From an uncultured bacterium (lineage in GTDB: Bacteria; Patescibacteriota; Microgenomatia; UBA1400; CG1-02-47-37): DNA of 64,000 nucleotides. Shown here piece after piece: positions 22,777 to 47,938 of this stretch. The translations under genes and the position numbers were made by a program. The DNA lies in contig CAXBYZ010000001.1 in NCBI GenBank assembly GCA_963980215.1, positions 7,370 through 71,369 of the forward strand, read 5' to 3'. The notes under the pieces are model-generated. The model made no database searches, had not been told where the DNA came from, and saw only the letters and a program-made list of their open reading frames with translations. The stretch's first letter is position 1. Every line of letters starts with the position of its first letter.

Positions 22777-23117
22777 GGCTAGGAAGTGTGGTGATGCCCT
22801 GACTTTATGTCAGGGAGGAAAGTCCAGACTGCAGAAAACAGGGTGCCCAACGTAAGTTGGGGCTTGAGTAGACTTAGCTACCCAAGCCAGTGAAGCCACA
22901 GAGACGAGTTCTTTGTAAGTTAATTACTTATAAAAGAAGTGAAACGTCCTAAACCACAGTTGGTTTAGGAACTACTTTAACCTTTGGTTGAAGAGTGGTA
23001 ATTCTCCTCGCAGCAACTTCCGATCGATCCATTATGAGGATGTTTTCCCTAGGATCAAAGATTGAAGGCATTAGATAGATATCACCTTAAACAGAATCTG
23101 GCTTACTGCTTCCTAGC
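22777..23117 (+). ncRNA. rnpB: RNase P RNA (bacterial type)
   Basis: P4 halves GGAGGAAAGTCCAGAC (22815-22830) and AACAGAATCTGGCTTAC (23090-23106). P1 pairing GCTAGGAAG (22778-22786) with CTTCCTAGC (23109-23117). TATAAT at 22766-22771; T-run after the 3' end. Confidence 0.7.
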
Positions 23118-24113
23118 ACTTTTTTTAGGCTTAATTTTTAAAATTAAAATTGAGATGGCAATAACAAGCAGATAGCTTAATAAAGTTGGGGCGACCGGAA
23201 CGAGAGATAAATCAAATTTAAGTAAATGAAGTGGCATGGGGTGAGCTAGGTAAATAAGATAAGAGTTTTGGCCAAACCAAGCTAAGTATTTATTTTTAAG
23301 TAATTTAGAGGTATTGGTAAGAAAAAAGCCAATCAGACCAATTGCATAAATGAAGTTTGGTAATTTTGCAAAGCGAATAGCTTGAATAATATCCCCGCTT
23401 GAACTAACTATTTTTGAGGCTTCAAAAACTGATAAAAATAAACCTATAAATATTAGAGTGATTGAACTTCTCTTTGAGATAAACTTATCTTGACTGGCAA
23501 GGTAGATACCTAAGATGAAGTAGCCAGTCCAAACTAAAATATTACTGTGTTGAAGCTGATCTGGGATAAAAGGAATTTTTAGAGTGAAGTAGGAGTACAG
23601 ACCTAGCTTTATAACTAGAGCTAAGGAGAGAAGGGGTAGTAATAGTTTTTTGGGTAGTTTTTTTAGTAAGGCAAAGACTAGATAGAGTTTGAAGATAACC
23701 GGAACAAAGTAAAGATGGTAGTCGGCCCGACCGTTGAATATGATTTGAGAAGCTGACCAGCCACTTAAAACCTTCCACCAAGGTTTGATAAAAATTGACA
23801 AAGCTATGTAGTAGGCTGACCAAAGAATGTATAGAGGCAGGGTGGTGAAGCTTCTTTTTTTGATAAAAGATTTGAAGACAAAAGGTTTTTGTTGATAACT
23901 TAAACTTAGACCAAAACCAGACAGAAAGATAAAGATTGGGACGCAGAAACGCATGACTTGATCTAGAGATAGAAAGATTAAGTTTTGAGGGTGAGTGGTA
24001 AACTGTTCTTGAGTGGCGAGGGTAAGAAGGTGAATAGAAACAACAGCAAGAATAGATAGACCTTTGGCGGAGTTGACGGTGAGCCTGTCTTTATTAATTA
24101 AGGCGACAGACAT
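23103..24113 (-). CDS. acyltransferase family 3 (OafA-like) membrane protein
   Basis: 10-TM acyl_transf_3 architecture. 3' end overlaps rnpB by about 15 nt, antiparallel. Confidence 0.7.
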   Translation of the reverse strand: MSVALINKDRLTVNSAKGLSILAVVSIHLLTLATQEQFTTHPQNLIFLSLDQVMRFCVPIFIFLSGFGLSLSYQQKPFVFKSFIKKRSFTTLPLYILWSAYYIALSIFIKPWWKVLSGWSASQIIFNGRADYHLYFVPVIFKLYLVFALLKKLPKKLLLPLLSLALVIKLGLYSYFTLKIPFIPDQLQHSNILVWTGYFILGIYLASQDKFISKRSSITLIFIGLFLSVFEASKIVSSSGDIIQAIRFAKLPNFIYAIGLIGFFLTNTSKLLKNKYLAWFGQNSYLIYLAHPMPLHLLKFDLSLVPVAPTLLSYLLVIAISILILKIKPKKSARKQ

Positions 24114-33505: not shown

Positions 33506-33781
33506 CTAAAGACCACTAAAGCTAATCTTTAATTCTCCACCAAATGTATTTGCTAATCGTTTTAGAAAAGAGACTGAAGTTGTAGTTTGGGCGTTTTCAA
33601 TGCGAGAGATAACTGATTGTTTGGTTTTAAGTTTTTTAGCTAATTGCTCTTGAGTGAGCTGATGTTTGACTCTAGCCTTGATGACTGTTCTGGCAATTTC
33701 ATATTCAAGACAACTCTTTTTGAGAGCTTCTTTGAACTTTGGATTTTTTAACAGTTGTTTTTTGTGTGTTTGCCAGTCCAT
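33506..33781 (-). CDS. HTH XRE-family antitoxin (HigA-like)
   Basis: LTQEQLAKKLKTKQSVISRIEN is an XRE HTH. Downstream partner of the HigB-like toxin. Confidence 0.65.
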   Translation of the reverse strand: MDWQTHKKQLLKNPKFKEALKKSCLEYEIARTVIKARVKHQLTQEQLAKKLKTKQSVISRIENAQTTTSVSFLKRLANTFGGELKISFSGL

Positions 33782-33811
33782 ATGTTTTTATAATATCACA
33801 ATATTGTGATA

Positions 33812-34153
33812 TTAGTCAAGTGAGTTTTTTAATCTTTGCAAGGCTATCTTGATTTCTTTTTTAGGAGTTTTTTGAGATTTTTTGATAAAAGCATGGAGAA
33901 ATAAAAATATTTTATTTTTTTTAGTAAAGTAAAAAAACCGTATAGATTTCTTGCCAATAAGCCTTAATTCCCATAATGGCGTACCCTTAAGTTTCTTGAT
34001 ATAAGGTCTACCTAGCTTGAGGTTAAATTCTATTAACAATTCGAATGTATCGTGAACTTTTGCCTGAGAAGTTTCTGGCAAATTATTAATAAAGTCTTTA
34101 ACTGGAATTTTACCTGATGATTTAGTGTAGTATTTTATTTTCCATTTGGGCAT
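33812..34153 (-). CDS. type II toxin, HigB/Gp49 (RelE superfamily) family
   Basis: ...GTPLWELRLIGKKSIRFFYF...IFLFLHAFIKKSQKTPKKEI; toxin-first gene order typical of higBA. Confidence 0.65.
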   Translation of the reverse strand: MPKWKIKYYTKSSGKIPVKDFINNLPETSQAKVHDTFELLIEFNLKLGRPYIKKLKGTPLWELRLIGKKSIRFFYFTKKNKIFLFLHAFIKKSQKTPKKEIKIALQRLKNSLD

Positions 34154-34220: not shown

Positions 34221-34291
34221 CGGGGATTGGTTTAACGGTAGAATGCGCGGCTGGGGGTCGTGCGGCGACAGTTCAATTCTGTCATCCCCGA
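34221..34291 (+). tRNA. tRNA-Pro (anticodon GGG), no encoded CCA
   Basis: Cloverleaf built by hand. Acceptor CGGGGAT/ATCCCCG (C1:G72), discriminator A73, U8, A14, D-loop GG. Anticodon loop CUGGGGG (U33, G37). T-arm GACAG-TTCAATT-CTGTC. Confidence 0.8.
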
Positions 34292-34297
34292 CTATTT

Positions 34298-34315
34298 AGA
34301 TTGATATATCAATCT
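34298..34315 (+). terminator. perfect 18-bp palindrome AGATTGATATATCAATCT followed by TTTAT (tRNA terminator or operator)
   Basis: Self-complementary by inspection. Shares the TGATATATCA core with a palindrome at 30157-30175. Confidence 0.35.
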
Positions 34316-34318
34316 TTA

Positions 34319-34337
34319 TCACACTCCAGGAGTGTGA
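34319..34337. repeat. REP-like hairpin, family A variant (TCACACTCCAGGAGTGTGA)
   Basis: Same ATCACAC...GTGTGAT arms as the canonical copies, different centre. Confidence 0.65.
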
Positions 34338-34348
34338 TATTATAAACA

Positions 34349-34729
34349 ATGAAAATAATAAAGAAATTAATTGAACCGAAGTATAGAAAGGAAGGTGGAT
34401 TGTGGATGTTGGATATTGATAAGATTGAAGTGGGGTTTGAGGTAAAACAACGATCTATAGTACATATTCCTCCTGGCCAACTAGGAGGCAATCACAAACA
34501 CCCCAGGACTGAAGCGTTTATTGGAATTGGTAGAGAGTTAGAGTTGGTGTGGAAAGAAAATGAGAAGCTAATAAAAGAGATGATGAATCCAGGGGGACAG
34601 CTAGTATTGTTTACTATTCCTCCACAAGTGGAGCATGCGGTGAAAAATAAGTCTGAAGCTGAAAACGGGATGTTGATTGAGTTGGCTGATGCTGAACAAG
34701 ATCTGGTAGAAGTTTGTAAATTAATCTAG
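34349..34729 (+). CDS. cupin-domain protein
   Basis: Cupin motif 1 GGNHKHPRTEAFIGIG (G-x-H-x-H-x3-E-x6-G) and motif 2 PPQVEHAVKN (P-x-x-x-H-x3-N). Confidence 0.65.
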   Translation: MKIIKKLIEPKYRKEGGLWMLDIDKIEVGFEVKQRSIVHIPPGQLGGNHKHPRTEAFIGIGRELELVWKENEKLIKEMMNPGGQLVLFTIPPQVEHAVKNKSEAENGMLIELADAEQDLVEVCKLI

Positions 34730-34730
34730 A

Positions 34731-34749
34731 TCACACCTTAGAGGTGTGA
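34731..34749. repeat. REP-like hairpin, family A
   Basis: TCACACCTTAGAGGTGTGA. Sits 1 nt after the cupin stop and supplies the stop plus HTSKV to the convergent phosphoribosyltransferase gene. Confidence 0.7.
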
Positions 34750-35279
34750 TTTTGGAAATATTTGACTTGTTCGGGGGAGAAATTAAGGGATTTGAGGGAG
34801 TCGAGTTTGCCTAGTTTTTTAAGGTCGTCTATGGTCTCTCTAACATCGTAAGCAAAAACTACCCACTTGTCTGTTTTGATTTGCCAGTAATCTGGCAAGG
34901 GTTTACTCCAAGGTTTGATAATGGGAGTGAAAGTGGTAATTTTTTTGGGTTTTAGGGGCTTTAAATAATTAAAGGCGGCTTTTAGAGTAGTACCTTTATC
35001 TGTAATTTCGTCGACTAGTAAAATTGACTCGCCTTTGATATCAACAGCTAATTTTTCAACAATTTTGGGCTCGCCGGAATTGCCAACACTGGCGTAGGAA
35101 ACGAGAGTGAAATTGGATATAGGTAGCTTTAGAAAATCTGAGAGAATGCGAGAGATGACTAAACCGCCACGAGAGATACAAACAATGCGATCGAACTTTA
35201 TTTTTTTGTCGATAACCGTTTTTGAAAATTGAAAGCAGTGGTCTTGGATTTGATCCCAAGAAATGTATTGAAATTTCAT
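34731..35279 (-). CDS. phosphoribosyltransferase (type I PRTase fold)
   Basis: PRPP-binding motif ILLVDEITDKGTTL. The C-terminal NHTSKV and the stop are REP-encoded. Confidence 0.7.
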   Translation of the reverse strand: MKFQYISWDQIQDHCFQFSKTVIDKKIKFDRIVCISRGGLVISRILSDFLKLPISNFTLVSYASVGNSGEPKIVEKLAVDIKGESILLVDEITDKGTTLKAAFNYLKPLKPKKITTFTPIIKPWSKPLPDYWQIKTDKWVVFAYDVRETIDDLKKLGKLDSLKSLNFSPEQVKYFQNHTSKV

Positions 35280-35291
35280 AGGTTTACTCTA

Positions 35292-35310
35292 TCACGCTCC
35301 AGGAGTGTGA
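35292..35310. repeat. REP-like hairpin, family A variant (TCACGCTCCAGGAGTGTGA)
   Basis: One mismatch in the stem relative to the 34319 copy. Confidence 0.6.
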
Positions 35311-35327
35311 TTGGGTGGTGTATTGGC

Positions 35328-36668: not shown

Positions 36669-37621
36669 AAGTTGGCGGTGACGATGGTTTGGAGTTGTTC
36701 TCTAGTGGTGGTGGCCATGAGTTGTTGGCGGAGATTTAGGGCATTAGGAAAGTCGTTGATGTAAACTTTGATAAATCTTTTTAAGACATGAATAGGTTTT
36801 TTATCTCCCCAATTTTTGATAAAGATGTTTAAGTGGTCATCTAATAATTTAAATTTTTCTTGAGGAGATAAATCTTTGATGGATTTTTGGGGATTGAAGA
36901 TAAAGGGATCGTGAAAGACTCCCCGACCGATCATGACGCCATCAACTTGATACTTTTTAACTTTTTGGTGAGCGTCTACTAATGAAGTAACGTCGCCATT
37001 GCCGATGATTAGAGTATTAGGGCTGATTTTGTCTCTTAGCTTAACCGCTTTTCCAATCTCATCCCAATGAGTGGGAACGTCGGATAATTCTTTAGTGGTG
37101 CGACCGTGAATGGTAAGGGCTGAGGGTTTGAATTTTAGTAAAAAGCTGATCCAGATTTCAGTTTGGATAGTTTTAAAACCAATTCTGGTTTTGATAGAGA
37201 CTGGGATTTTGTTGTTGGCACCTTTTATAGTAGCGGTGATAATTTTTTCGGCTAAGGAATGATTGTTGATCAAAGCAGAACAGGCACCTTTTTTGATGAC
37301 GGTTTTTTCTGGACAGCCAAAATTCAGGTCAACTCCGTTAAAACCTAAGTTATAAACTAGATCAGCTGAAGCTTCAAAAAGCTCGGGAACTAGACCCCAA
37401 AGTTGGGCGATTAAGGGTTTTTCTTTTGGGGTGTGATTTAAATATTGAAGATAGCTTGATTGATCGTGAGAAAAGATGGATTGAACGTTAACAAATTCGG
37501 TAAACATTAAGTCTGGTTTTCCGATATTAACCAACAATTGCCGAAAGGCCATGTCGGTGACCCCCTCCATGGGAGCTAAGCAAATGATGGGCTTTTTTAG
37601 GATTTGCCAAATATTTACCAT
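36665..37621 (-). CDS. dus: tRNA-dihydrouridine synthase
   Basis: ICLAPMEGVTDMAFRQL; TIM-barrel FMN site; catalytic Cys region NFGCP. Confidence 0.8.
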   Translation of the reverse strand: MVNIWQILKKPIICLAPMEGVTDMAFRQLLVNIGKPDLMFTEFVNVQSIFSHDQSSYLQYLNHTPKEKPLIAQLWGLVPELFEASADLVYNLGFNGVDLNFGCPEKTVIKKGACSALINNHSLAEKIITATIKGANNKIPVSIKTRIGFKTIQTEIWISFLLKFKPSALTIHGRTTKELSDVPTHWDEIGKAVKLRDKISPNTLIIGNGDVTSLVDAHQKVKKYQVDGVMIGRGVFHDPFIFNPQKSIKDLSPQEKFKLLDDHLNIFIKNWGDKKPIHVLKRFIKVYINDFPNALNLRQQLMATTTREQLQTIVTANL

Positions 37622-37638
37622 AGTGAGATGATTATACT

Positions 37639-38502
37639 ATGACTAAAGATAAGTACTCGGCTACTTGGGTTTCTCATTCTTCGATTAGTGATTGGTTGGC
37701 TTGTCCTCGAGCTTACTTTTTGAAAAATGTGTATAAAGATCCAAAAACTGGGCATAAAATTTCTTTAATGAGTCCACCACTAGCTTTGGGGTCGGCGGTA
37801 CATGAAGTGGTGGAGGGGTTGTCTGTGTTGCCAACCGATAAAAGATTTGATGAGTCGTTGATTAAAAAATTTGATAAAGTCTGGGGGAAATTTAGTGGTA
37901 AGAAGGGTGGGTTTGGGGATGAAGCTGAGGAGGGCCGGTATAAAGAGAGAGGAAAAAAGATGTTGAGGCGAGTGATGAAGTATCCGGGGCCTTTGAAAAA
38001 TTTGGCGGTGAAGATTCAGATGGATTTGCCTAATTATTGGCTAAGTGAAGAAGATAATATAATTCTTTGTGGAAAGATTGATTGGCTTGAATATTTGAAA
38101 GACGAGGACATGGTCCATATTATTGACTTTAAAACCGGAAAAAGGGCGGAGCAAAAGGGTTCGTTGCAACTACCGATTTATTATTTATTGGTAACTAATA
38201 CTCAAAAACGGGCGGTAAAAAAGGCAAGTTATTGGCATATTGATTTGGCCGATGAGCCGATGGAACAAAAGTTACCGGATATTAAAAAAGCTAATGAGAA
38301 GATTTTAAAAATTGCTAAGGAGATAAAGCTGGCGAGAACTTTGGAGAGGTTTAAGTGCCCGAATGATGGCTGTCGAGCTTGTAAACCAATGGAGAAAATT
38401 ATTAAAGGCGAAGGTGAGTTTGTGGGGGTGGATGAGATTCGGCGGGATATTTATATTCTACCTAGAACGAAAGAGGATAAGCCTGAGGGTAAGATATTGT
38501 GA
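37639..38502 (+). CDS. PD-(D/E)XK nuclease, Cas4/RecB-like, with 4-Cys cluster
   Basis: N-terminal Cys (WLACPRAYF), IIDFKTGKR (D...K) core, C-terminal FKCPNDGCRACKP Cys triad. Confidence 0.6.
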   Translation: MTKDKYSATWVSHSSISDWLACPRAYFLKNVYKDPKTGHKISLMSPPLALGSAVHEVVEGLSVLPTDKRFDESLIKKFDKVWGKFSGKKGGFGDEAEEGRYKERGKKMLRRVMKYPGPLKNLAVKIQMDLPNYWLSEEDNIILCGKIDWLEYLKDEDMVHIIDFKTGKRAEQKGSLQLPIYYLLVTNTQKRAVKKASYWHIDLADEPMEQKLPDIKKANEKILKIAKEIKLARTLERFKCPNDGCRACKPMEKIIKGEGEFVGVDEIRRDIYILPRTKEDKPEGKIL

Positions 38503-38513
38503 GTGAGTAAAAT

Positions 38514-39581
38514 ATGAAGAAAGTGAAATCAAAACAAATTGACGATGGTTTGAGAGAAATCATACTCTATAGAACAGCTAGTGATCAGGTTAGGGTGGAG
38601 GTTTTTTTAATCAATGAAACTTTGTGGCTGACTCAAGAGAGGATAGCTAAAGTTTTTGGGGTTCAAAGGCCGGCCATTACCAAGCATTTAAGAAATATAT
38701 TTGCTAGTGGTGAGTTAGACGAAAAAGGGGTTAGTTCCATTTTGGAACACACCACTAAGCATGGGGCTATCAAGGGAAAATCTCAGGTTGGCAAAGTTAA
38801 GTATTATAATCTTGATGTGATTATTGCCGTAGGATATAGGGTTAATAGTAAGCGTGCGACTCAATTTAGAATTTGGGCTACTAGTGTATTAAAAGAGTAT
38901 GTGGTTAAGGGTTTTGCTATGGATGATAATAGGCTTAAAGATCCTAAATATTTTTTTGGTAAAGATTACTTTGAGGAGCAGTTAGCCAGAATTAGAGATA
39001 TTCGCTCGAGCGAGCGTAGGTTTTATCAAAAAATTACTGATATCTACGCCGAGTGTAGTGCGGATTATGATTCAGATGAAGAAATAACTAGAGAATTTTT
39101 TGCCACGGTGCAAAATAAGCTTCACTTTGCCGTCTCTGGGCAAACAGCTGCCGAGATTATTAATGCTAGAGTGTCTAGTAGAAAACCCAATATGGGATTA
39201 ACTACTTGGAAAAATTCCCCTAAAGGTAAAGTTAGAGAGGCTGATGTGGAAATTGCTAAAAATTATTTAAGTGAAAAGGAATTAGACCATCTCAATAGAA
39301 TCGTATCTATGTATCTCGATTATGCTGAGCTTCAAGCAAAAAGGGGGCGAGTCATGTATATGAAGGATTGGGTAAAAAAACTTGATGCTTTTTTACATTT
39401 TAATGATCAGGATATTTTGCAAGGAAAAGGTGAGGTCAGCCATGAAGTGGCAGTGGCGCTGGCAAAAAAAGAGTATAAGGCTTTTTGTATTAAACAAGAT
39501 AAAAATTACTTGTCAGATTTTGATAAGTTTAGTGGACAATATTTGGAGCAGCTGGATAAGAAAACTAATGACAAACTGTAA
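38514..39581 (+). CDS. RhuM-family protein (virulence protein RhuM family)
   Basis: Strong similarity to the RhuM pattern from memory: IILYRT...VRVEVFLINETLWLTQERIAKVF...YYNLDVIIAVGYRVNSKRATQFRIWAT...LKEY..KGF..DD.RLK...YF.E...RIRDIRSSERRFYQKITDIYA...DY. Confidence 0.65.
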   Translation: MKKVKSKQIDDGLREIILYRTASDQVRVEVFLINETLWLTQERIAKVFGVQRPAITKHLRNIFASGELDEKGVSSILEHTTKHGAIKGKSQVGKVKYYNLDVIIAVGYRVNSKRATQFRIWATSVLKEYVVKGFAMDDNRLKDPKYFFGKDYFEEQLARIRDIRSSERRFYQKITDIYAECSADYDSDEEITREFFATVQNKLHFAVSGQTAAEIINARVSSRKPNMGLTTWKNSPKGKVREADVEIAKNYLSEKELDHLNRIVSMYLDYAELQAKRGRVMYMKDWVKKLDAFLHFNDQDILQGKGEVSHEVAVALAKKEYKAFCIKQDKNYLSDFDKFSGQYLEQLDKKTNDKL

Positions 39582-39876
39582 AGATAAAGCTTTAAAGTGG
39601 GTGGGTAAAATTCCCAAAGGGAAAGTGGCAACTTATGGGCAAATTGCTAAGTTGGCGGGAATGAAAGGGGCCAGGCCGGTGGGAAATTGGCTTCATACTC
39701 ACGGACAACCAATCACCATAGTTCCCTGCCACCGGGTGGTAAATAGTAAGGGTGGGTTGGCGAAAAATTTTGGAGCCAAAGGGAAGATTCAAACCCAAAA
39801 AAAGCGATTGGAGTCCGAGGGGGTGAAGGTTAAAAACTATAATGTTGATTTGGATAAATTTTTATGGAAGGGGTAG
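39568..39876 (+). CDS. MGMT-family DNA-binding-domain protein (retains the -PCHRV- Cys)
   Basis: 102 aa from ATG 39568 (MTNCKDKALKWVGKIPKGKVATYGQIAKLAG...IVPCHRVV). Overlaps the RhuM end by 14 nt in another frame; the track ORF 39382.. is an upstream alt-start extension. Confidence 0.65.
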   Translation: MTNCKDKALKWVGKIPKGKVATYGQIAKLAGMKGARPVGNWLHTHGQPITIVPCHRVVNSKGGLAKNFGAKGKIQTQKKRLESEGVKVKNYNVDLDKFLWKG

Positions 39877-39902
39877 CCCTACAAGGATAAACCCTGTAGA
39901 TG
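39877..39902. repeat. REP-like element, family B variant (CCCTACAAGGATAAACCCTGTAGATG)
   Basis: CTACA-AGG...CCCTGTAG imperfect inverted repeat with the GTAG/CTAC signature. Confidence 0.5.
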
Positions 39903-39912
39903 AAAATACAAA

Positions 39913-39931
39913 TCACACTCCCGGAGTGTGA
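39913..39931. repeat. REP-like hairpin, family A variant (TCACACTCCCGGAGTGTGA)
   Basis: Contains the CACTCCCGGAGTG core found in the rplM/rplQ insertions. Confidence 0.65.
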
Positions 39932-39936
39932 TTTGG

Positions 39937-40785
39937 CTAACTGTTTTTGCCGTGTTCGAGGACTTCCCCGCGACGGACAGTAAAGTTATAGTTTTTTAAT
40001 AACTTTTGAATTGTCTGGCTAAGGTCTGCTTTGTATTGGTCATTTTTGGCTTGATAGAATTTCTTGATAACTTGATCTTTTTGGCCGGAAAGTTTTTTTA
40101 ATAATCTATCTTTGATGTAGGAGGAAAGATTTAAGTGCTCTAAATAAATTTCGGTGGTGCCGGTGTTTTTGATGGCATCAAAGATACCGGTTAAGTTTCT
40201 GGGATTAGCAGAAAAATGAGGCAGTAAAGGACCAATAAAGGCGTAGGTTTTAATGCCCTCTTGATTTAGTTTTTTTAGAGCTTTTAATCTTAATGATACC
40301 GGCGGGGCGGATTTTTCTAAAAATTGACTAACCTTATCTTTGGTGGTGGTAATGGTTAAACCAACTTCAATTTTTTGGAGTTGGTTGAAAAGATCAATGT
40401 CTCGGGTGACTAAACTGGACTTGGTTAAGATACTGATTTGGCCTGGCCAATTATGCTTTATTAATAACTTTAAAACTCCTCTAGAAAGCTGGTATTTGGT
40501 CTCGATACCTTGGTAGGGGTCAGTAACCGAACTTAAAAAAATGGTTTTGGTTTTATCTTTGATTTTAGCTAATTGCTGGTCTAAAACTTCAAGGAGATTA
40601 ACTTTAACAAAGACGTAGTTACCTCAATCGTTGATACTTTTGCCAACAAAGCGACCCATAAAACTGGCATAACAATAACTACAACCAAAGGCACAACCGG
40701 TATAGGGATTGATGACGTAGTCGGCGTCTGGTAATTTGGAAGCGACTAAAGCAGTTTTGACTTTTATTTCTTTGACGATGTTCAT
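39937..40785 (-). pseudogene. radical SAM protein, SplB/spore-photoproduct-lyase-like, interrupted by one in-frame TGA
   Basis: Manual translation: [65 protein letters not shown]...EHGKNS. CxxxCxxC radical-SAM motif; TGA at complement 40624-40626; no Met downstream of the stop. Not in the ORF track. Confidence 0.6.
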
Positions 40786-40812
40786 TTTGGGTAAATTATA
40801 GCAAAGAAAGTG

Positions 40813-40839
40813 CCTACAGGGTCGGACCCTGAAGGTTGG
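40813..40839. repeat. REP-like element, family B (CCTACAGGGTCGGACCCTGAAGGTTGG)
   Basis: CTAC + palindrome CAGGGTC-G-GACCCTG + GAAGGT. Confidence 0.6.
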
Positions 40840-40885
40840 CTTGACGGTGGAGAGAATTTGGGAGAAGATTTGAATAGTAGGTTTT

Positions 40886-41563
40886 ATGAAGAAACTAAAG
40901 AAAAAGTTGTTGATATCAAAGTGGTTGGGATTAGGATTGCTGATCCCCTCTTTATTGCTGAATGCCTACTTTGTTAGTCGGCCAAAAAGTGATTATGGAA
41001 TTGAAGTGATGGAGGTGTTGGATGGAGATACTTTGCTATTGGAAGGGAAAACTCGATTGAGGTTACGGCAAGTGGATATGCCGGAACTTGATAATTGTTA
41101 TGGACAGGAAGCTAAACAATTATTGGAAGAGATGGTAAAGGGAAAGAAAATTACTATTCAAGATAAAATCTTGGATCAGCGAGGTCGAGCCATGGCTTTG
41201 GTCTATTTGGGAGATAGATTAGTCAACTTGGAGTTATTAAAGAATGGTATGGGACGGTATCATTCGGACAAAACTCGAGCGACTGAGGAGTTGAAAGCGG
41301 CCGGAGCCAAAGCGAAGGCAGAAAATTTGGGAGTGTACTCGCCGGAGTGTTACCAACAAGAAAAAAATTTGGAAAAACCGGAGTGTATTATTAAGGGAAA
41401 TATCGATTTAAATAATCAAAGTATTAAGAGATATTACTACCCGGGTTGTGCCCAGTATAAATTCGTGATTGTGGAGAAAGATAAAGGTGAAGATTGGTTT
41501 TGTAGTGAAGCGGAGGCTGAGGTGGCAGGGTATGTGAAGGCTAAATCCTGCCCGGAGGGATGA
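40886..41563 (+). CDS. secreted staphylococcal-nuclease (SNase/thermonuclease) family nuclease with C-terminal Cys-containing domain
   Basis: Signal/TM N-terminus; SNase motifs [36 protein letters not shown]-terminal KGNI...YYYPGCAQY...[13 protein letters not shown] module. Confidence 0.75.
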
Positions 41564-41581
41564 AGTTTTAAGAGAAGGTTG

Positions 41582-41604
41582 CCTACAAGGTTGGACCCTG
41601 AAGG
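41582..41604. repeat. REP-like element, family B (CCTACAAGGTTGGACCCTGAAGG)
   Basis: Same CTACA-GG...CCCTGAAGG framework as the 40813 copy. Confidence 0.6.
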
Positions 41605-41625
41605 AAAAAGATCATGGTAAAATAG

Positions 41626-42270
41626 ATGAATATGAAAAAGCGAATGTTTTTTGCGTCAAGCATAGATAGAGTGGCAAGTCATATAGTTGGGAAAATTGAA
41701 GGAGGAGTGGATGGACTAAAGTCGGTGTTTATTAATACAGCTGCGGAAGCGGAGGAAGGTGATAAAAGTTGGATGGAAATTGATAGAACTGGATTAAATG
41801 AAGCTGGAATTAAAACTTTTGATTATACTATTACCGGTAAAACTAAAAGTGATTTGGAACGAGATTTAGGTGATTGTGAGTGGATCCATGTAAATGGCGG
41901 AAATGCTTTTTATTTACTACTCCAAATGCGAAAGTCGGGGTTTGACCAATTTATTAAGAGGCAGATTAATAAAGGGGTTATTTATTCCGGTTCAAGTGCT
42001 GGCTCGATAGTGGCGGCACCGGATATTGAAATTACTAAATGTATTGAGAGTAAAGACTTTGAAAAAGAGCTTGGAAGTTTTGAAGGATTAGGATTAGTAG
42101 ATTTTATTACTCTACCTCATTGGGGTGGTGATGATTTTAGAGAATTATATTTAAATCAAAAAATTAAGTCTGCTTATAGAAAAGGGAATAAAATCATTTT
42201 GTTGAATGATGATCAGTATGTGGAAGTGGTGGATGGAAATTATAAAATTGTGGATGTAACGAAAGATTAA
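41626..42270 (+). CDS. peptidase S51 (dipeptidase E-like)
   Basis: GGNAFYLL and GSSAGSIV (Ser nucleophile) motifs. Confidence 0.7.
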   Translation: MNMKKRMFFASSIDRVASHIVGKIEGGVDGLKSVFINTAAEAEEGDKSWMEIDRTGLNEAGIKTFDYTITGKTKSDLERDLGDCEWIHVNGGNAFYLLLQMRKSGFDQFIKRQINKGVIYSGSSAGSIVAAPDIEITKCIESKDFEKELGSFEGLGLVDFITLPHWGGDDFRELYLNQKIKSAYRKGNKIILLNDDQYVEVVDGNYKIVDVTKD

Positions 42271-42273
42271 AAG

Positions 42274-42298
42274 ACCTTCAAGGACTGTCCTTGAAGGT
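42274..42298. repeat. REP-like element, family B, perfect 12-bp-arm palindrome (ACCTTCAAGGAC-T-GTCCTTGAAGGT)
   Basis: Perfect inverted repeat by inspection. Confidence 0.6.
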
Positions 42299-42351
42299 GC
42301 GGGAAAATAGTTTTCTCAAGAGAATTTTATTTGTGAATAAATTATAGGGTT

Positions 42352-42375
42352 ATACAGGGACTGTCCTTGAAGGTG
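42352..42375. repeat. REP-like element, family B (TACAGGGACTGTCCTTGAAGGTGG)
   Basis: CAGGGAC-T-GTCCTTG with one mismatch. Confidence 0.55.
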
Positions 42376-42392
42376 GAGGGCTAGAGTTTTGA

Positions 42393-42793: not shown

Positions 42794-43279
42794 TTATTTA
42801 TCCTTTTTTAATTTCTTAACAGACACTCCTGGAGTGGGAACTTCTTTCACTCCGGGAGTGAGAGATTTCTTTAATTTATCAGCATAAATGTGGGTTTCTG
42901 TTTTAAATATTTTTAATCTCTTTAACCTTGGACTTCTTAGCTTGTTTTTTGGCAACATGCTGGAAACTGCTCTAGTAATAATTTTTCTTGAATCTTTTTC
43001 TAACTGACGGTCAAAGGTGATTTGTTTTAAGCCATTTGGAAAGTTGGTGTGGCGGTAGTAAATTTTATTTTGTTCTTTTCTACCAGTTACTTTGACGTCG
43101 TTGCTGTTTATGACTACTACATAGTCTCCACAATCTAGGTGGGAAGTGAAGTAGGGTTTGGTCTTGCCGATTAATTTTTGGGCAATTTGAGTAGCGACTC
43201 GACCCAAAACTTGGTCTTTGACATCTACTAGATGCCAATCTCTTTTTATATCTGATTGTTTGGTTGCGTATGTGTCCAT
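42794..43279 (-). CDS. rplM: 50S ribosomal protein L13 with REP-encoded C-terminal extension
   Basis: L13 core; after ...IYADKLKK comes SLTPGVKEVPTPGV (encoded by the 42824-42860 element) then SVKKLKKDK. Confidence 0.9.
   Translation of the reverse strand: MDTYATKQSDIKRDWHLVDVKDQVLGRVATQIAQKLIGKTKPYFTSHLDCGDYVVVINSNDVKVTGRKEQNKIYYRHTNFPNGLKQITFDRQLEKDSRKIITRAVSSMLPKNKLRSPRLKRLKIFKTETHIYADKLKKSLTPGVKEVPTPGVSVKKLKKDK
42824..42860. repeat. BIME-like inverted pair of family-A hairpins (CACTCCTGGAGTG-GGAACTTCTTT-CACTCCGGGAGTG), in frame inside the rplM 3' end
   Basis: 36/37 identical to 43297-43333. The two hairpins are reverse complements of each other. Translated on the minus strand as LTPGVKEVPTPGV. 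Confidence 0.7.
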
Positions 43280-43281
43280 AA

Positions 43282-43701
43282 TTATTTCTCCACTTTCACT
43301 CCCGGAGTGGGAACTTCTTTCACTCCGGGAGTGAGTGAAGATTCTATTTTATCGACGAATTCGATTTTGGCCATCATGGTGTTGTCTCCCCTTCTTTGAC
43401 CTAGTCTAACTATTCTAGTAAAACCAGAGTTTCTTTTTTTAGCTCTAGGAGCGATAACGTCAAAAAGATGATTGGCAGCTTTCTTGTGTGAGAGAAAAGC
43501 CATAACTTGGCGACGACAAGACAGAGAACCCTGCCTAGCTTTAGTCATTAATTTGTCAATTAATGGCTTTATTGCTTTGGCTTTGGCCTCGGTAGTCTTG
43601 ATCTGCTCTTTGAAGATCAAGTTAGTGAGCAAGCTTTTAAATAAAGCTTTTCTCTGTTTGATGTTTCTACCAAGTTTCTTGGATTTGACTCTGTGTCTCA
43701 C
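43282..43701 (-). CDS. rplQ: 50S ribosomal protein L17 with REP-encoded C-terminal extension
   Basis: L17 core (...FTRIVRLGQRRGDN); tail SLTPGVKEVPTPGVKVEK. Confidence 0.9.
   Translation of the reverse strand: MRHRVKSKKLGRNIKQRKALFKSLLTNLIFKEQIKTTEAKAKAIKPLIDKLMTKARQGSLSCRRQVMAFLSHKKAANHLFDVIAPRAKKRNSGFTRIVRLGQRRGDNTMMAKIEFVDKIESSLTPGVKEVPTPGVKVEK
43297..43333. repeat. BIME-like inverted pair of family-A hairpins, in frame inside the rplQ 3' end
   Basis: CACTCCCGGAGTGGGAACTTCTTTCACTCCGGGAGTG. Confidence 0.7.
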
Positions 43702-47204: not shown

Positions 47205-47215
47205 AGTTACCTCTA

Positions 47216-47234
47216 TCACACCTTAGAGGTGTGA
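47216..47234. repeat. REP-like hairpin, family A
   Basis: TCACACCTTAGAGGTGTGA. Supplies the stop and HTSKV to cmk. Confidence 0.7.
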
Positions 47235-47938
47235 TTGATTAATTTGAGGTGGAGGAGTTTTTTGATGATTGCTTCTACAACTTGGTTGATTGTTAGTTTT
47301 GTGGTTTTTAGTAACCAAGCTCCTGGAACAATTTTAAGTGGATCTGCTTCTCTACCAGAATCTTGTTGGTCTCTTTTTTTTGTTTGTTTTAGAGTGGCTG
47401 GAAATGATTGTTTGGTTCCTTTTTTTGATAACTCAATGTGTCTACGTTTGGCTCTTGATTCAACTGAAGCTGTCATGAATATTTTAATGTCTGCCTTGGG
47501 AAGAACAACTGAAGTGATGTCCCTGCCCTCCATAACAACGCTTTGTTTTTTTGCCATTGTTTTTTGAAGATTGACCAAGTGTTTTCTTACCCTTGGAAGA
47601 GTAGCTACCGAAGAAGCTCCCCAACTGATTTTCTCTGATCGAAGTTCTTTGGTGACATCTTTGTTGTCTAACATAACAGTGCAGAAGCGACTGTTGTTTT
47701 TGGGTGGATAGAGCGAGATTTTTGATTTTTTTAGTAAAGGAATTAATTCTTTTTCATTGGTAAATTCAATTGAATTTCTTTGAGCTATTAGAGCGACTGT
47801 CCGATACATTGAACCGGTGTCGATGTAGGTAATGCTTAGTTGTTTAGATAGTAAGCGAGCGATGGTGCTTTTTCCCGCTCCAGCTGGACCGTCGATGGCA
47901 ATTTGAATATTCTTGGTAGGTTTATACTTTGGCTTCAT
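47216..47938 (-). CDS. cmk: cytidylate kinase
   Basis: IAIDGPAGAGKST P-loop and CMP-binding region. The C-terminal HTSKV and stop are REP-encoded. Confidence 0.8.
   Translation of the reverse strand: MKPKYKPTKNIQIAIDGPAGAGKSTIARLLSKQLSITYIDTGSMYRTVALIAQRNSIEFTNEKELIPLLKKSKISLYPPKNNSRFCTVMLDNKDVTKELRSEKISWGASSVATLPRVRKHLVNLQKTMAKKQSVVMEGRDITSVVLPKADIKIFMTASVESRAKRRHIELSKKGTKQSFPATLKQTKKRDQQDSGREADPLKIVPGAWLLKTTKLTINQVVEAIIKKLLHLKLINHTSKV

Follow-up and report, generated by a model that had tools for sequence, protein, structure and literature searches.

Three tightly packed genes on the plus strand encode a predicted nuclease (NUC), a RhuM-family protein (RhuM) and a short protein with an MGMT DNA-binding domain (MGMT). 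Do the three belong to one system, or do they only lie together? The initial annotation of this DNA, a stretch of 64,000 nucleotides of an uncultured bacterium of the Patescibacteria (CPR) that we call the window, took them to be a single candidate defence or DNA-damage module. The features of the locus, in coordinates of the window, are as follows.

37604 to 37632, plus strand: candidate promoter of the whole unit (TTGCCA-17-TG-GATGAT), in the region of the 17-nt divergent Dus/NUC spacer
37639 to 38502, plus strand: NUC, a stand-alone Cas4-family Fe-S PD-(D/E)XK nuclease of 287 aa (PF12705, 1.2e-23)
38499 to 38504, plus strand: dead ancestral start of MGMT, GTG AGT, the GTGA of which covers the NUC stop codon (from the junctions of relatives)
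38505 to 39579, plus strand: insert of about 1,075 bp, each end placed to ± 3 nt (from comparison with L086, L006, L089 and L090)
38514 to 39581, plus strand: RhuM-family protein (PADLOC PDC-S05) of 355 aa (PF13310, 1.5e-109; PDC-S05, 1e-141)
39568 to 39876, plus strand: short single-domain MGMT of 102 aa (PF01035, 5e-21; TIGR00589, 46.5 bits)
39909 to 39935, no strand: REP-like palindrome of family D1 (CAAATCACACTCCCGGAGTGTGATTTG) between the convergent MGMT and SPL genes

The tight packing of the trio was confirmed from the ORF coordinates. NUC and RhuM are separated by 11 nt (38503 to 38513), and RhuM and MGMT overlap by 14 nt (39568 to 39581) out of frame (offset 1054 nt, remainder 1 mod 3). 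The 102-aa MGMT starts at an internal ATG (39568) of the ORF ending at 39876, and gene calls on identical contigs give the same product. The domain assignments of the initial annotation were also correct (PF12705, PF13310 and PF01035, with the values given above). The promoter-like site is a consensus match only and constitutes weak evidence, as three such sites were seen versus 6.8 expected by chance. The sole convincing terminator-like hairpin is the palindrome at 39909 to 39935, which is likely to be a bidirectional terminator that closes the unit (family D1 has copies at 34314, 34726, 35287, 39908 and 47211). The position of this hairpin together with the promoter-like site makes co-transcription of the trio plausible, and NUC, RhuM and MGMT probably share one transcript from the NUC promoter. 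Such a transcript would merely reflect the place where an insertion landed, as argued below.

RhuM matched PF13310 at 365.6 bits (gathering cutoff 33.7) over residues 82 to 330, and PDC-S05 over residues 9 to 345 (model positions 5 to 336 of 342). An NCBIfam scan gave no match, a PDB sequence search returned one insignificant HTH match only, and a structure model built from 19 homologues (pLDDT 48) was too poor to use. Its N-terminal part is an HTH/Bro-N-like DNA-binding region and its C-terminal part the helical RhuM domain. Another member of the family, a single PDC-S05 gene, lowered the plating of T7 and T5 on E. coli by a factor of about 1,000 (bioRxiv 10.1101/2024.09.26.614923), and RhuM in R-M loci has been predicted to be a toxin domain (PMC3710099). 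Judged by its sequence, RhuM belongs to PDC-S05, a known family of single-gene defence candidates. Together with the literature, this layout leads us to predict a HTH/Bro-N-like DNA-binding sensor fused to a self-sufficient toxin/effector domain.

RhuM is 66–72% identical to homologues of several phyla. The closest homologue other than itself is 71–73% identical, and matches at about 70% identity are named Patescibacteria, Bacteroidota, Deltaproteobacteria and Scalindua. Relatives occur in 127 plasmid records and in 51 phage, prophage or satellite records; RhuM adjoins TrwB-like or R-M genes in other CPR genomes, and HsdS (8), ResIII (6) and HsdM (4) are enriched among the neighbours of 80 RhuM metagenome loci. 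These records and neighbours bear out the expectation that RhuM is typical of mobile elements and type I R-M loci. The neighbours are heterogeneous, the commonest family accounting for 8 of 105 (80 homologues), which marks RhuM as a single-gene unit without an obligatory partner. Elsewhere the RhuM stop codon often overlaps the start of the next gene, the flanks being unrelated. At about 75 loci, we found no conserved ends, repeats or att-like sites beside the RhuM ORFs; the flanks diverge at the ORF borders. By tblastn, none of 80 RhuM loci contained a homologue of this NUC or MGMT, and the domain families of both were outside the 25 commonest among the immediate neighbours of RhuM at 80 loci.

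In the present genome, the surroundings of the trio (about 10 kb) contain Dus, NAGPA, SPL, SNase, peptidase S51, ribosomal protein and RecA/RecX genes, RecA/RecX being about 5 kb upstream. The only conflict-type genes near RhuM are a Gp49/HTH pair 3.5 kb away. R-M genes were not found within about 10 kb of the trio, nor were cas genes or Piwi/Argonaute families within ± 10 kb on contigs of the same strain. RhuM here thus lacks the settings typical of its family, whether an R-M locus, a defence island or a mobile element that can be recognised as such. The DNA-related genes at the locus are NUC, MGMT, a nearby SPL-like radical-SAM gene and RecA/RecX, and a looser DNA-related functional theme may run across them. 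The initial annotation had placed the trio in a REP-rich accessory stretch. REP-like palindromes are indeed present, and relatives differ in what lies between MGMT and rpsI, but NUC and MGMT belong to the conserved backbone, whose synteny reads RecA ... NAGPA-Dus / NUC-MGMT / rpsI-rplM.

PF12705 (PDDEXK_1) matches NUC over its full length. Matches to Cas4 and Dna2 were weak, the score against PF01930 (Cas4) being 18.2 bits and thus under the gathering cutoff of 22.7. PADLOC likewise gave weak matches to Cas4, DruK and Aga_Cas4-like models, and the match to Aga_Cas4-like_Nuc (3.7e-07) covers part of the protein only. NUC contains cysteines C22, C240, C245 and C248 and the motifs D148, D163-x-K165 and Q177-x3-Y181. 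In an alignment of 21 sequences, these cysteines and the catalytic motifs were invariant except for C245 (at least 90%); in one of 72 sequences, D163 and C245 were conserved at 90% or above. The best fold matches of an AF2 model of NUC (pLDDT 92.5) were ACE1, AdnAB, AddB, Dna2 and Cas4, with 9iac and 9iab (ACE1) as the top Foldseek matches (E 4e-7, TM 0.57–0.65).

We found 6,487 homologues of NUC, the best 120 listed being 63–86% identical. Relatives, mostly of about 270–295 aa and one with an inserted GIY-YIG domain, are encoded in at least 530 species genomes; matches in phages were not obtained. The identity of NUC across the 80 species loci examined was 59–83%, a conservation similar to that of RecA and ribosomal protein S9 (81%, 90% and 86%, respectively, at L007). 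Its immediate neighbours in these 80 species are unrelated housekeeping genes, no family occurring more than three times in 124, and the 25 commonest families among the 124 include no Cas, Piwi/Argonaute or helicase family. From these comparisons, NUC is a vertically inherited, strongly conserved chromosomal gene of the Microgenomates/Patescibacteria group. Its fold and conservation pattern point most likely to a housekeeping role in DNA-end or flap processing in recombination/repair. Three other identities were rejected because the defining partners are absent from the commonest immediate neighbours of NUC at the 80 loci: CRISPR Cas4 (neither cas1/cas2 nor a CRISPR array, and PF01930 below its gathering score), Argonaute-associated ACE1 (no Argonaute partner despite the similar structure) and an AddAB subunit (no helicase partner).

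MGMT scored just above the cutoff of TIGR00589 (46.4 bits) and far under the cutoffs of the equivalog models. The match to PF01035 is to the MGMT DNA-binding domain. The protein has PCHRV (Cys54, in VPCHRV), Tyr23, Arg36 and the Glu of ESEG, and PCHRV is present in 114 of 120 homologues. Its best PDB matches were Atl1 (3gva, 1e-15) and 2kif (9e-12), presumably the Vibrio ATL, whose chain of 108 residues reads PWFRV at this motif. A PADLOC search with MGMT gave no match. Its description as an MGMT-like lesion-binding domain suits its ATL-like size and best PDB matches but passes over the catalytic PCHR cysteine, which is kept. MGMT therefore most likely acts as a suicide O6-alkylguanine alkyltransferase or, failing that, binds O6-alkylguanine.

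Close relatives of the locus lack RhuM. MGMT lies directly 3' of NUC in seven related lineages (L006, L089/L090/L091, L086, L174/175, L176, L177/178 and L179/180; NUC 70–86% identical), none of which has RhuM. In these relatives NUC and MGMT overlap by 4 nt (GTGA stop/start), except in L179, where the gap is 0 nt. MGMT starts at the same GTG (GTG AGT/AGC) in L086, L089/L090 and L006, and the gene calls of L174, L176 and L177 have the identical 4-nt overlap. More widely, NUC is without an adjacent MGMT in 79 of 80 species loci. MGMT is 4–7 kb from NUC in L029, L043 and L077, has been lost in L007 and is a pseudogene beside an intact NUC in L006. Small ORFs that overlap the NUC stop in L011, L022 and L026 proved unrelated to MGMT. 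No NUC-MGMT fusions were seen among the longer relatives of NUC. RhuM was found near NUC in none of the 80 species loci, 72 of which extend at least 1.2 kb downstream of NUC.

Comparison of the junctions locates the difference to within 3 nt. The window retains GTGAGT (38499 to 38504), but the next codons, GAG TAA, end the frame at once. The insert comprises a 9-nt leader and the RhuM ORF, and nothing more; one MGMT codon (TTG) has been replaced, the MGMT frame resumes thereafter, and the new ATG of MGMT sits within the 3' end of RhuM. Neither flanking repeats nor a recombinase were found at the insertion. The trio is confined to contigs of this same strain, among which there is no presence/absence polymorphism: every contig with an identical NUC carries RhuM. 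The GC content of RhuM (0.364) and its GC3 (0.323) are within the host range, without a compositional anomaly, and hence either the insertion is not recent or the donor was of similar GC.

We consider it highly probable that the locus is a mosaic, in which a mobile single-gene RhuM candidate defence cassette lies within a clade-specific NUC-MGMT pair. Within the clade of this organism, the normal arrangement is NUC with a single-domain MGMT of 100 aa directly behind it and the 4-nt GTGA overlap. The junction comparison shows that ORF-sized DNA bearing RhuM alone was inserted between MGMT codons 2 and 4, in this lineage only. The old MGMT start has been left as a dead GTG-AGT-GAG-TAA stub, with the 3' end of RhuM providing a replacement ATG. 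Plasmids, prophages, satellites and R-M loci carry the RhuM family across phyla, and its genes are typically embedded in host operons. RhuM/PDC-S05 is a known defence-candidate family, and the locus is, on this account, an ordinary mosaic.

That the three proteins cooperate in one dedicated nucleic-acid-targeting defence or DNA-damage system, as first proposed, is very improbable. The tight packing and probable co-transcription, the DNA-related domains in all three proteins, the fit of RhuM to a defence-candidate HMM and the weaker fits of NUC to Cas4, DruK and Aga_Cas4-like models could all be cited for it. Yet the trio occurs in this strain only, RhuM is missing at 80 of 80 NUC loci and in seven of seven close relatives, and no homologue of NUC or MGMT accompanies RhuM at 80 of 80 loci, nor are their domain families among its commonest neighbours. 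NUC moreover evolves like a core gene, vertically inherited in conserved synteny and without a cas, Argonaute or helicase partner, and the junction points to a simple insertion. MGMT, furthermore, had no PADLOC match. The initial annotation had itself named two outcomes that would refute it, genes never co-located elsewhere and a housekeeping-type first gene in conserved synteny, and both were observed. We regard as equally improbable that RhuM serves here in the DNA-damage response, as a DinD-like factor taken into a repair operon, and not in phage defence. The conserved dinD domain also matches RhuM-domain proteins (PMC9881135), and repair genes adjoin RhuM here, with RecA/RecX some 5 kb upstream; however, the 80 RhuM loci show no recurrent association with repair genes, and members of the family usually travel on mobile elements or in R-M loci. 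Still less credible is an ancestral RhuM that was precisely deleted in the relatives. The host-like composition of RhuM would suit it, though nothing specific favours it, and it would require repeated deletions in seven lineages, each remaking the GTGA junction and the MS(L/K)KD N-terminus. It also conflicts with the dead copy of the MGMT start codon upstream of RhuM in the window and with the unrelated contexts and phyla of the closest RhuM relatives.

A narrower proposal is that NUC and MGMT are a true functional pair, in which a lesion recogniser passes O6-alkylguanine sites to the Fe-S nuclease and RhuM is a mere passenger. We consider this unlikely, albeit the best of the alternatives. 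The GTGA overlap (0-nt gap in L179) has been kept in the seven relatives at NUC identities of 70–86%, and the sequences nearest to that of MGMT belong to ATL proteins, which serve as damage sensors. The AGT-endonuclease V fusion of Ferroplasma is a precedent for linking an alkyltransferase to a nuclease. The adjacency is nevertheless little informative, as the entire neighbourhood is syntenic in that clade. Outside the clade, NUC never adjoins MGMT (non-adjacent in 79 of 80 loci, 4–7 kb apart in L029, L043 and L077). MGMT has been lost in L007 (NUC 81% identical) and disabled beside an intact NUC in L006, no fusion proteins were found, and the insertion of RhuM between both genes was tolerated. 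Slightly more doubtful still is the extension of this proposal to an undescribed alkylation-repair pathway of the clade, built on the conserved and apparently translationally coupled pair, with RhuM cassettes perhaps spreading as bare ORFs. In such a pathway, the minimal alkyltransferase, of ATL size but with its Cys, would bind or tag O6-alkylguanine or itself end up as a DNA-protein adduct. Incision or resection of the site would then fall to the stand-alone Cas4-type Fe-S nuclease, and RhuM cassettes would parasitise the transcription and translational coupling of host operons such as NUC-MGMT.

The mosaic reading counsels caution, since tightly spaced or overlapping genes in a compact CPR genome are no sign of a functional system. 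The locus is an unusually clean natural case of RhuM/PDC-S05 as a bare ORF in a host operon, and the displaced start fossil, with the downstream gene re-started inside the insert, informs how single-gene defence cassettes spread and are expressed. A second point of interest is the nuclease itself, a stand-alone Cas4-like Fe-S protein that is uncharacterised yet very conserved. Its gene behaves like part of the core genome in Microgenomates-type Patescibacteria, and one clade couples it to an ATL-sized MGMT with its cysteine kept.

Compared with known systems, NUC shares the four-cysteine cluster and the D / D-x-K / Q-x3-Y motifs with Cas4-family Fe-S nucleases, although the sequence identity to its Cas4-family fold matches is just 12–19%. 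It has the fold and the similar size (about 270–290 aa) of ACE1 of the Argonaute-associated Cas4 family (PDB 9iab/9iac), and the nuclease domains of AdnAB and AddB are significant fold matches. In contrast to AddB, AdnAB and RecB, NUC is a stand-alone protein of 287 aa with neither a fused UvrD-like helicase nor a recurrent helicase neighbour, and its behaviour is that of a core gene conserved in a CPR lineage, not that of a defence-island gene. MGMT resembles the ATLs (S. pombe Atl1, 3gva; 2kif) in having a single C-terminal MGMT domain of about 100 aa, and it shares the Tyr, the Arg finger and the C-terminal W-K motif with both ATLs and the Ogt/MGMT alkyltransferases. Like Ogt/MGMT it has the PCHR active-site cysteine, which ATLs by definition lack (PWHR, PWFR or PAHR), whereas canonical Ogt, Ada and MGMT have an extra N-terminal (ribonuclease-like) domain that is missing from this 102-aa protein, which is the C-terminal domain only.

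RhuM agrees with other PDC-S05/PF13310 copies in being a single gene without a fixed partner and, as in many of them, in its place inside a host operon with overlapping start and stop codons. It differs from the known ones in lacking a DOC/Fic fusion, in lying between two housekeeping-type repair genes beside a ribosomal protein cluster, and in its idiosyncratic C-terminal tail past SDFDK, which supplies the start codon of the downstream gene. As in type I R-M operons with an embedded RhuM (PMC9881135, PMC3710099), the gene is situated between host genes that are probably co-transcribed and is putatively coupled in translation to its neighbours, but the host operon is NUC-MGMT instead of hsdRMS.

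The three ORFs, with the gap and the overlap given in the initial annotation, were recovered when we rechecked their coordinates, and Pfam searches confirmed that all three genes had been named correctly. The window also holds the other features listed here.

37639–38502, +: NUC (Cas4-like nuclease) ORF, 287 aa; PDDEXK_1, 1.2e-23, full length (Pfam)
38514–39581, +: RhuM ORF, 355 aa; RhuM, 1.5e-109 (Pfam)
39568–39876, +: MGMT ORF, 102 aa; MGMT DNA-binding domain, 5e-21 (Pfam)
38505–39579, +: putative inserted segment, about 1,075 bp; 9-nt leader and RhuM ORF
39936–40785, −: SPL-like radical-SAM ('DNA photolyase-like') gene, convergent with MGMT; stop codon at 40621–40623
33506–34153, −: Gp49/HigB-like toxin and HTH_3 antitoxin-like pair, just downstream of recA
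34221–34291, +: tRNA gene adjoining the Gp49/HTH_3 pair, with a REP-like element
22778–23121: RNase P RNA
34314–34338, 34726–34750, 35287–35311, 39908–39932 and 47211–47235, intergenic: REP-like palindromes, ATCACACTCCNGGAGTGTGAT family
40811–40835, 41580–41604, 42273–42297 and 42349–42373, intergenic: REP-like palindromes, TGCCTACAGGGTCGGACCCTGAAGG family
42811–42880 and 43284–43353: 70-nt repeat flanking rplM

NUC and RhuM are 11 nt apart, and RhuM overlaps MGMT by 14 nt, out of frame. A promoter-like site upstream of NUC, together with the position of the sole good terminator-like hairpin (the REP-like palindrome at 39909–39935, 3′ of MGMT), makes a single transcript plausible. The host is a Patescibacteria/CPR bacterium of the Microgenomates type with a low GC content (0.39). 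On 23 contigs of public samples we found this strain again, its RhuM protein identical (47 collection blocks in the index).

The proposal that the three genes form one defence or DNA-damage module was not borne out. A tblastn search with RhuM, a highly conserved protein, found it in 0 of 80 NUC loci, 72 of which had at least 1.2 kb of downstream sequence, and seven closer relatives retrieved separately had none. In the other direction, tblastn detected no homologue of the window NUC or MGMT in 80 metagenome RhuM loci, and the 25 commonest families of the neighbouring genes included neither of the two domain families. Thus, the trio was not co-located elsewhere in these three sets; of the at least 530 NUC loci and at least 594 RhuM loci, the neighbourhood surveys covered the best 80 each. 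The best-supported reading is that a known mobile single-gene defence candidate, RhuM, is inserted in a clade-specific core nuclease–MGMT pair.

In relatives whose NUC is 70–86% identical, the gene order is RecA ... NAGPA-Dus (−), NUC-MGMT (+), rpsI-rplM-rplQ-rpoA ... (−). MGMT begins where NUC stops, and the two overlap by 4 nt (a 0-nt gap in contig L179). NUC-MGMT without RhuM was found in L089/L090/L091, L174/175, L176, L177/178, L179/180, L006 and L086; the last is the closest relative, and its contig ends 31 nt into MGMT. At least 13 NUC and MGMT matches are located on common contigs. This appears to be the ancestral arrangement. The relatives' junction reads ...TTG TGA, and the GTG start of MGMT overlaps it as GTGA; then come AGT/AGC, TTG/AAA/TTA and AA(A/G) GAT, which yields the N-terminus M-S-(L/K)-K-D. 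In the window, the junction is ...TTG TGA GT, then GAGTAAAAT ATG...(RhuM)...AAA CTG T, then AAA GAT AAA GCT. This comparison identifies the GTG AGT left at 38499–38504 as a dead stub (GTG AGT GAG TAA) as the surviving MGMT start. MGMT picks up again at codon 4, 3′ of the inserted segment, and the 3′ end of RhuM provides a new ATG (39568), so that the N-terminus becomes M-T-N-C-K-D. Judged from these sequences, RhuM was most simply inserted into NUC-MGMT. Loss of RhuM from the relatives by repeated precise deletion is implausible because the uninterrupted junction is common to seven lineages. No repeats, recombinase or conserved ends were found with the inserted segment when flanks were compared between RhuM loci, and RhuM resembles the host in composition.

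A functional partnership of NUC and MGMT is a separate possibility, and we consider it quite unlikely. It has no support outside the syntenic clade: MGMT was not seen adjacent to NUC beyond it in the 80 NUC loci. MGMT is also dispensable where NUC is kept. Contig L007 (NUC 81% identical) is without any MGMT, and in L006, from the closest GTDB species (NUC 83% identical), an in-frame TGA replaces Trp (VGN*IH; 1937–2240), so that this MGMT is probably a pseudogene.

Host operons seem to be the habitual setting of RhuM, which is embedded there as a bare ORF. Around other RhuM genes, the flanks diverge right at the borders of the ORF and are unrelated between loci. In many unrelated loci (L093, L099, L150, L157, L162, L164, L167, L170), the RhuM stop overlaps the next gene's start as ATGA. 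The nearest non-self relative was only 71–73% identical, and proteins of ∼70% identity are named from Patescibacteria, Bacteroidota, Deltaproteobacteria and Planctomycetes. RhuM was found on 127 plasmids, and 51 records of phages, prophages or satellites also carry it. It matched the PADLOC PDC-S05 models along the whole length of the models (1e-141). Among the neighbours in the 80 loci, called with a crude ORF finder, type I R-M components were enriched (HsdS 8, ResIII 6, HsdM 4, HsdR N-terminus 3), and TrwB-like or R-M genes adjoin RhuM in other CPR genomes. RhuM has been predicted to be a toxin domain that takes the place of DOC in R-M/PrrC loci (PMC3710099). It is enriched beside hsdS genes of the invertible type, and a dinD-like domain occurs together with it (PMC9881135). 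In E. coli, one single gene of PDC-S05 protected about 1,000-fold against T7 and T5 (bioRxiv 10.1101/2024.09.26.614923). In our working model, the N-terminus would be an HTH/Bro-N-like DNA-binding sensor and the C-terminus a helical effector acting alone.

The initial annotation had allowed that the first gene might be a housekeeping RecB-family enzyme with conserved synteny, and NUC indeed tracks RecA and S9 in a clade of conserved synteny. Its divergence follows housekeeping markers (window versus L007: NUC 81%, RecA 90%, S9 86%, L13 79%). Of the 6,487 homologues that we retrieved, the best 120 have 63–86% identity; nearly all are 279–295 aa long, and they belong to Beckwith-, Shapiro-, Woese-, Roizman-bacteria and similar groups. 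At least 530 species encode NUC (one genome scanned per species), and 50,697 phage records held no homologue. The 124 immediate neighbours in 80 species loci, called with a crude ORF finder, span 127 Pfam families, none seen more than three times; no helicase, cas or Argonaute family was among the 25 commonest. NUC thus belongs with the core genes rather than with defence genes. C22, C240, C248, D148, K165, Q177 and Y181 are invariant in alignments, and C245 and D163 are at least 90% conserved. AlphaFold gave a confident model (pLDDT 92.5); its best matches among solved structures include the Argonaute-associated Cas4-family protein ACE1 (TM about 0.6), the nuclease domains of AdnAB and AddB, and Dna2 and Cas4. 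Cas4 and Dna2 were also weak extra Pfam matches. The 85 family representatives (50% clustering, E ≤ 1e-30) are mostly stand-alone, with no MGMT fusion among them. One relative from this search, P0367 (378 aa), carries a GIY-YIG domain at about residues 165–232 inside the PD-(D/E)XK nuclease, which suggests a homing-endonuclease-type insertion into a conserved gene.

The interval between NUC-MGMT and rpsI (window 39877–42392; L174:5294–7326) is variable in the clade. It holds SPL, SNase and peptidase S51 genes in the window and Maf, dCMP deaminase and AEP-like primase genes in L174, and is empty in L176, L177 and L179; this spot beside the ribosomal protein cluster may be a hotspot of recurrent insertion. 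In the window and in contig L003, codon 54 of the SPL-like gene is an in-frame TGA. The codon is TGG (Trp) and the gene intact (282 aa) in the same-strain contigs L001, L002, L004 and L005. The TGA does not reflect recoding; it is either a nonsense polymorphism that segregates in the strain or an error of sequencing. It is the sole base differing in 19.5 kb (99.995% identity) between the window and L001, the only contig compared in full. The REP-like palindromes are placed between genes like terminator hairpins. The Gp49/HigB-like and HTH_3 pair is kept at the same place in L174 and L177.

MGMT resembles the ATL proteins in size and in its best PDB matches, Atl1 (3gva, 1e-15) and 2kif (9e-12), a 108-residue chain with the motif PWFRV. 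Unlike ATLs, it retains the active-site cysteine (Cys54) of PCHRV, a motif present in 114 of 120 homologues, and this rules it out as an ATL by definition. The Tyr, the Arg finger and the catalytic-network Glu can also be read from the sequence, and MGMT is probably a minimal active alkyltransferase.
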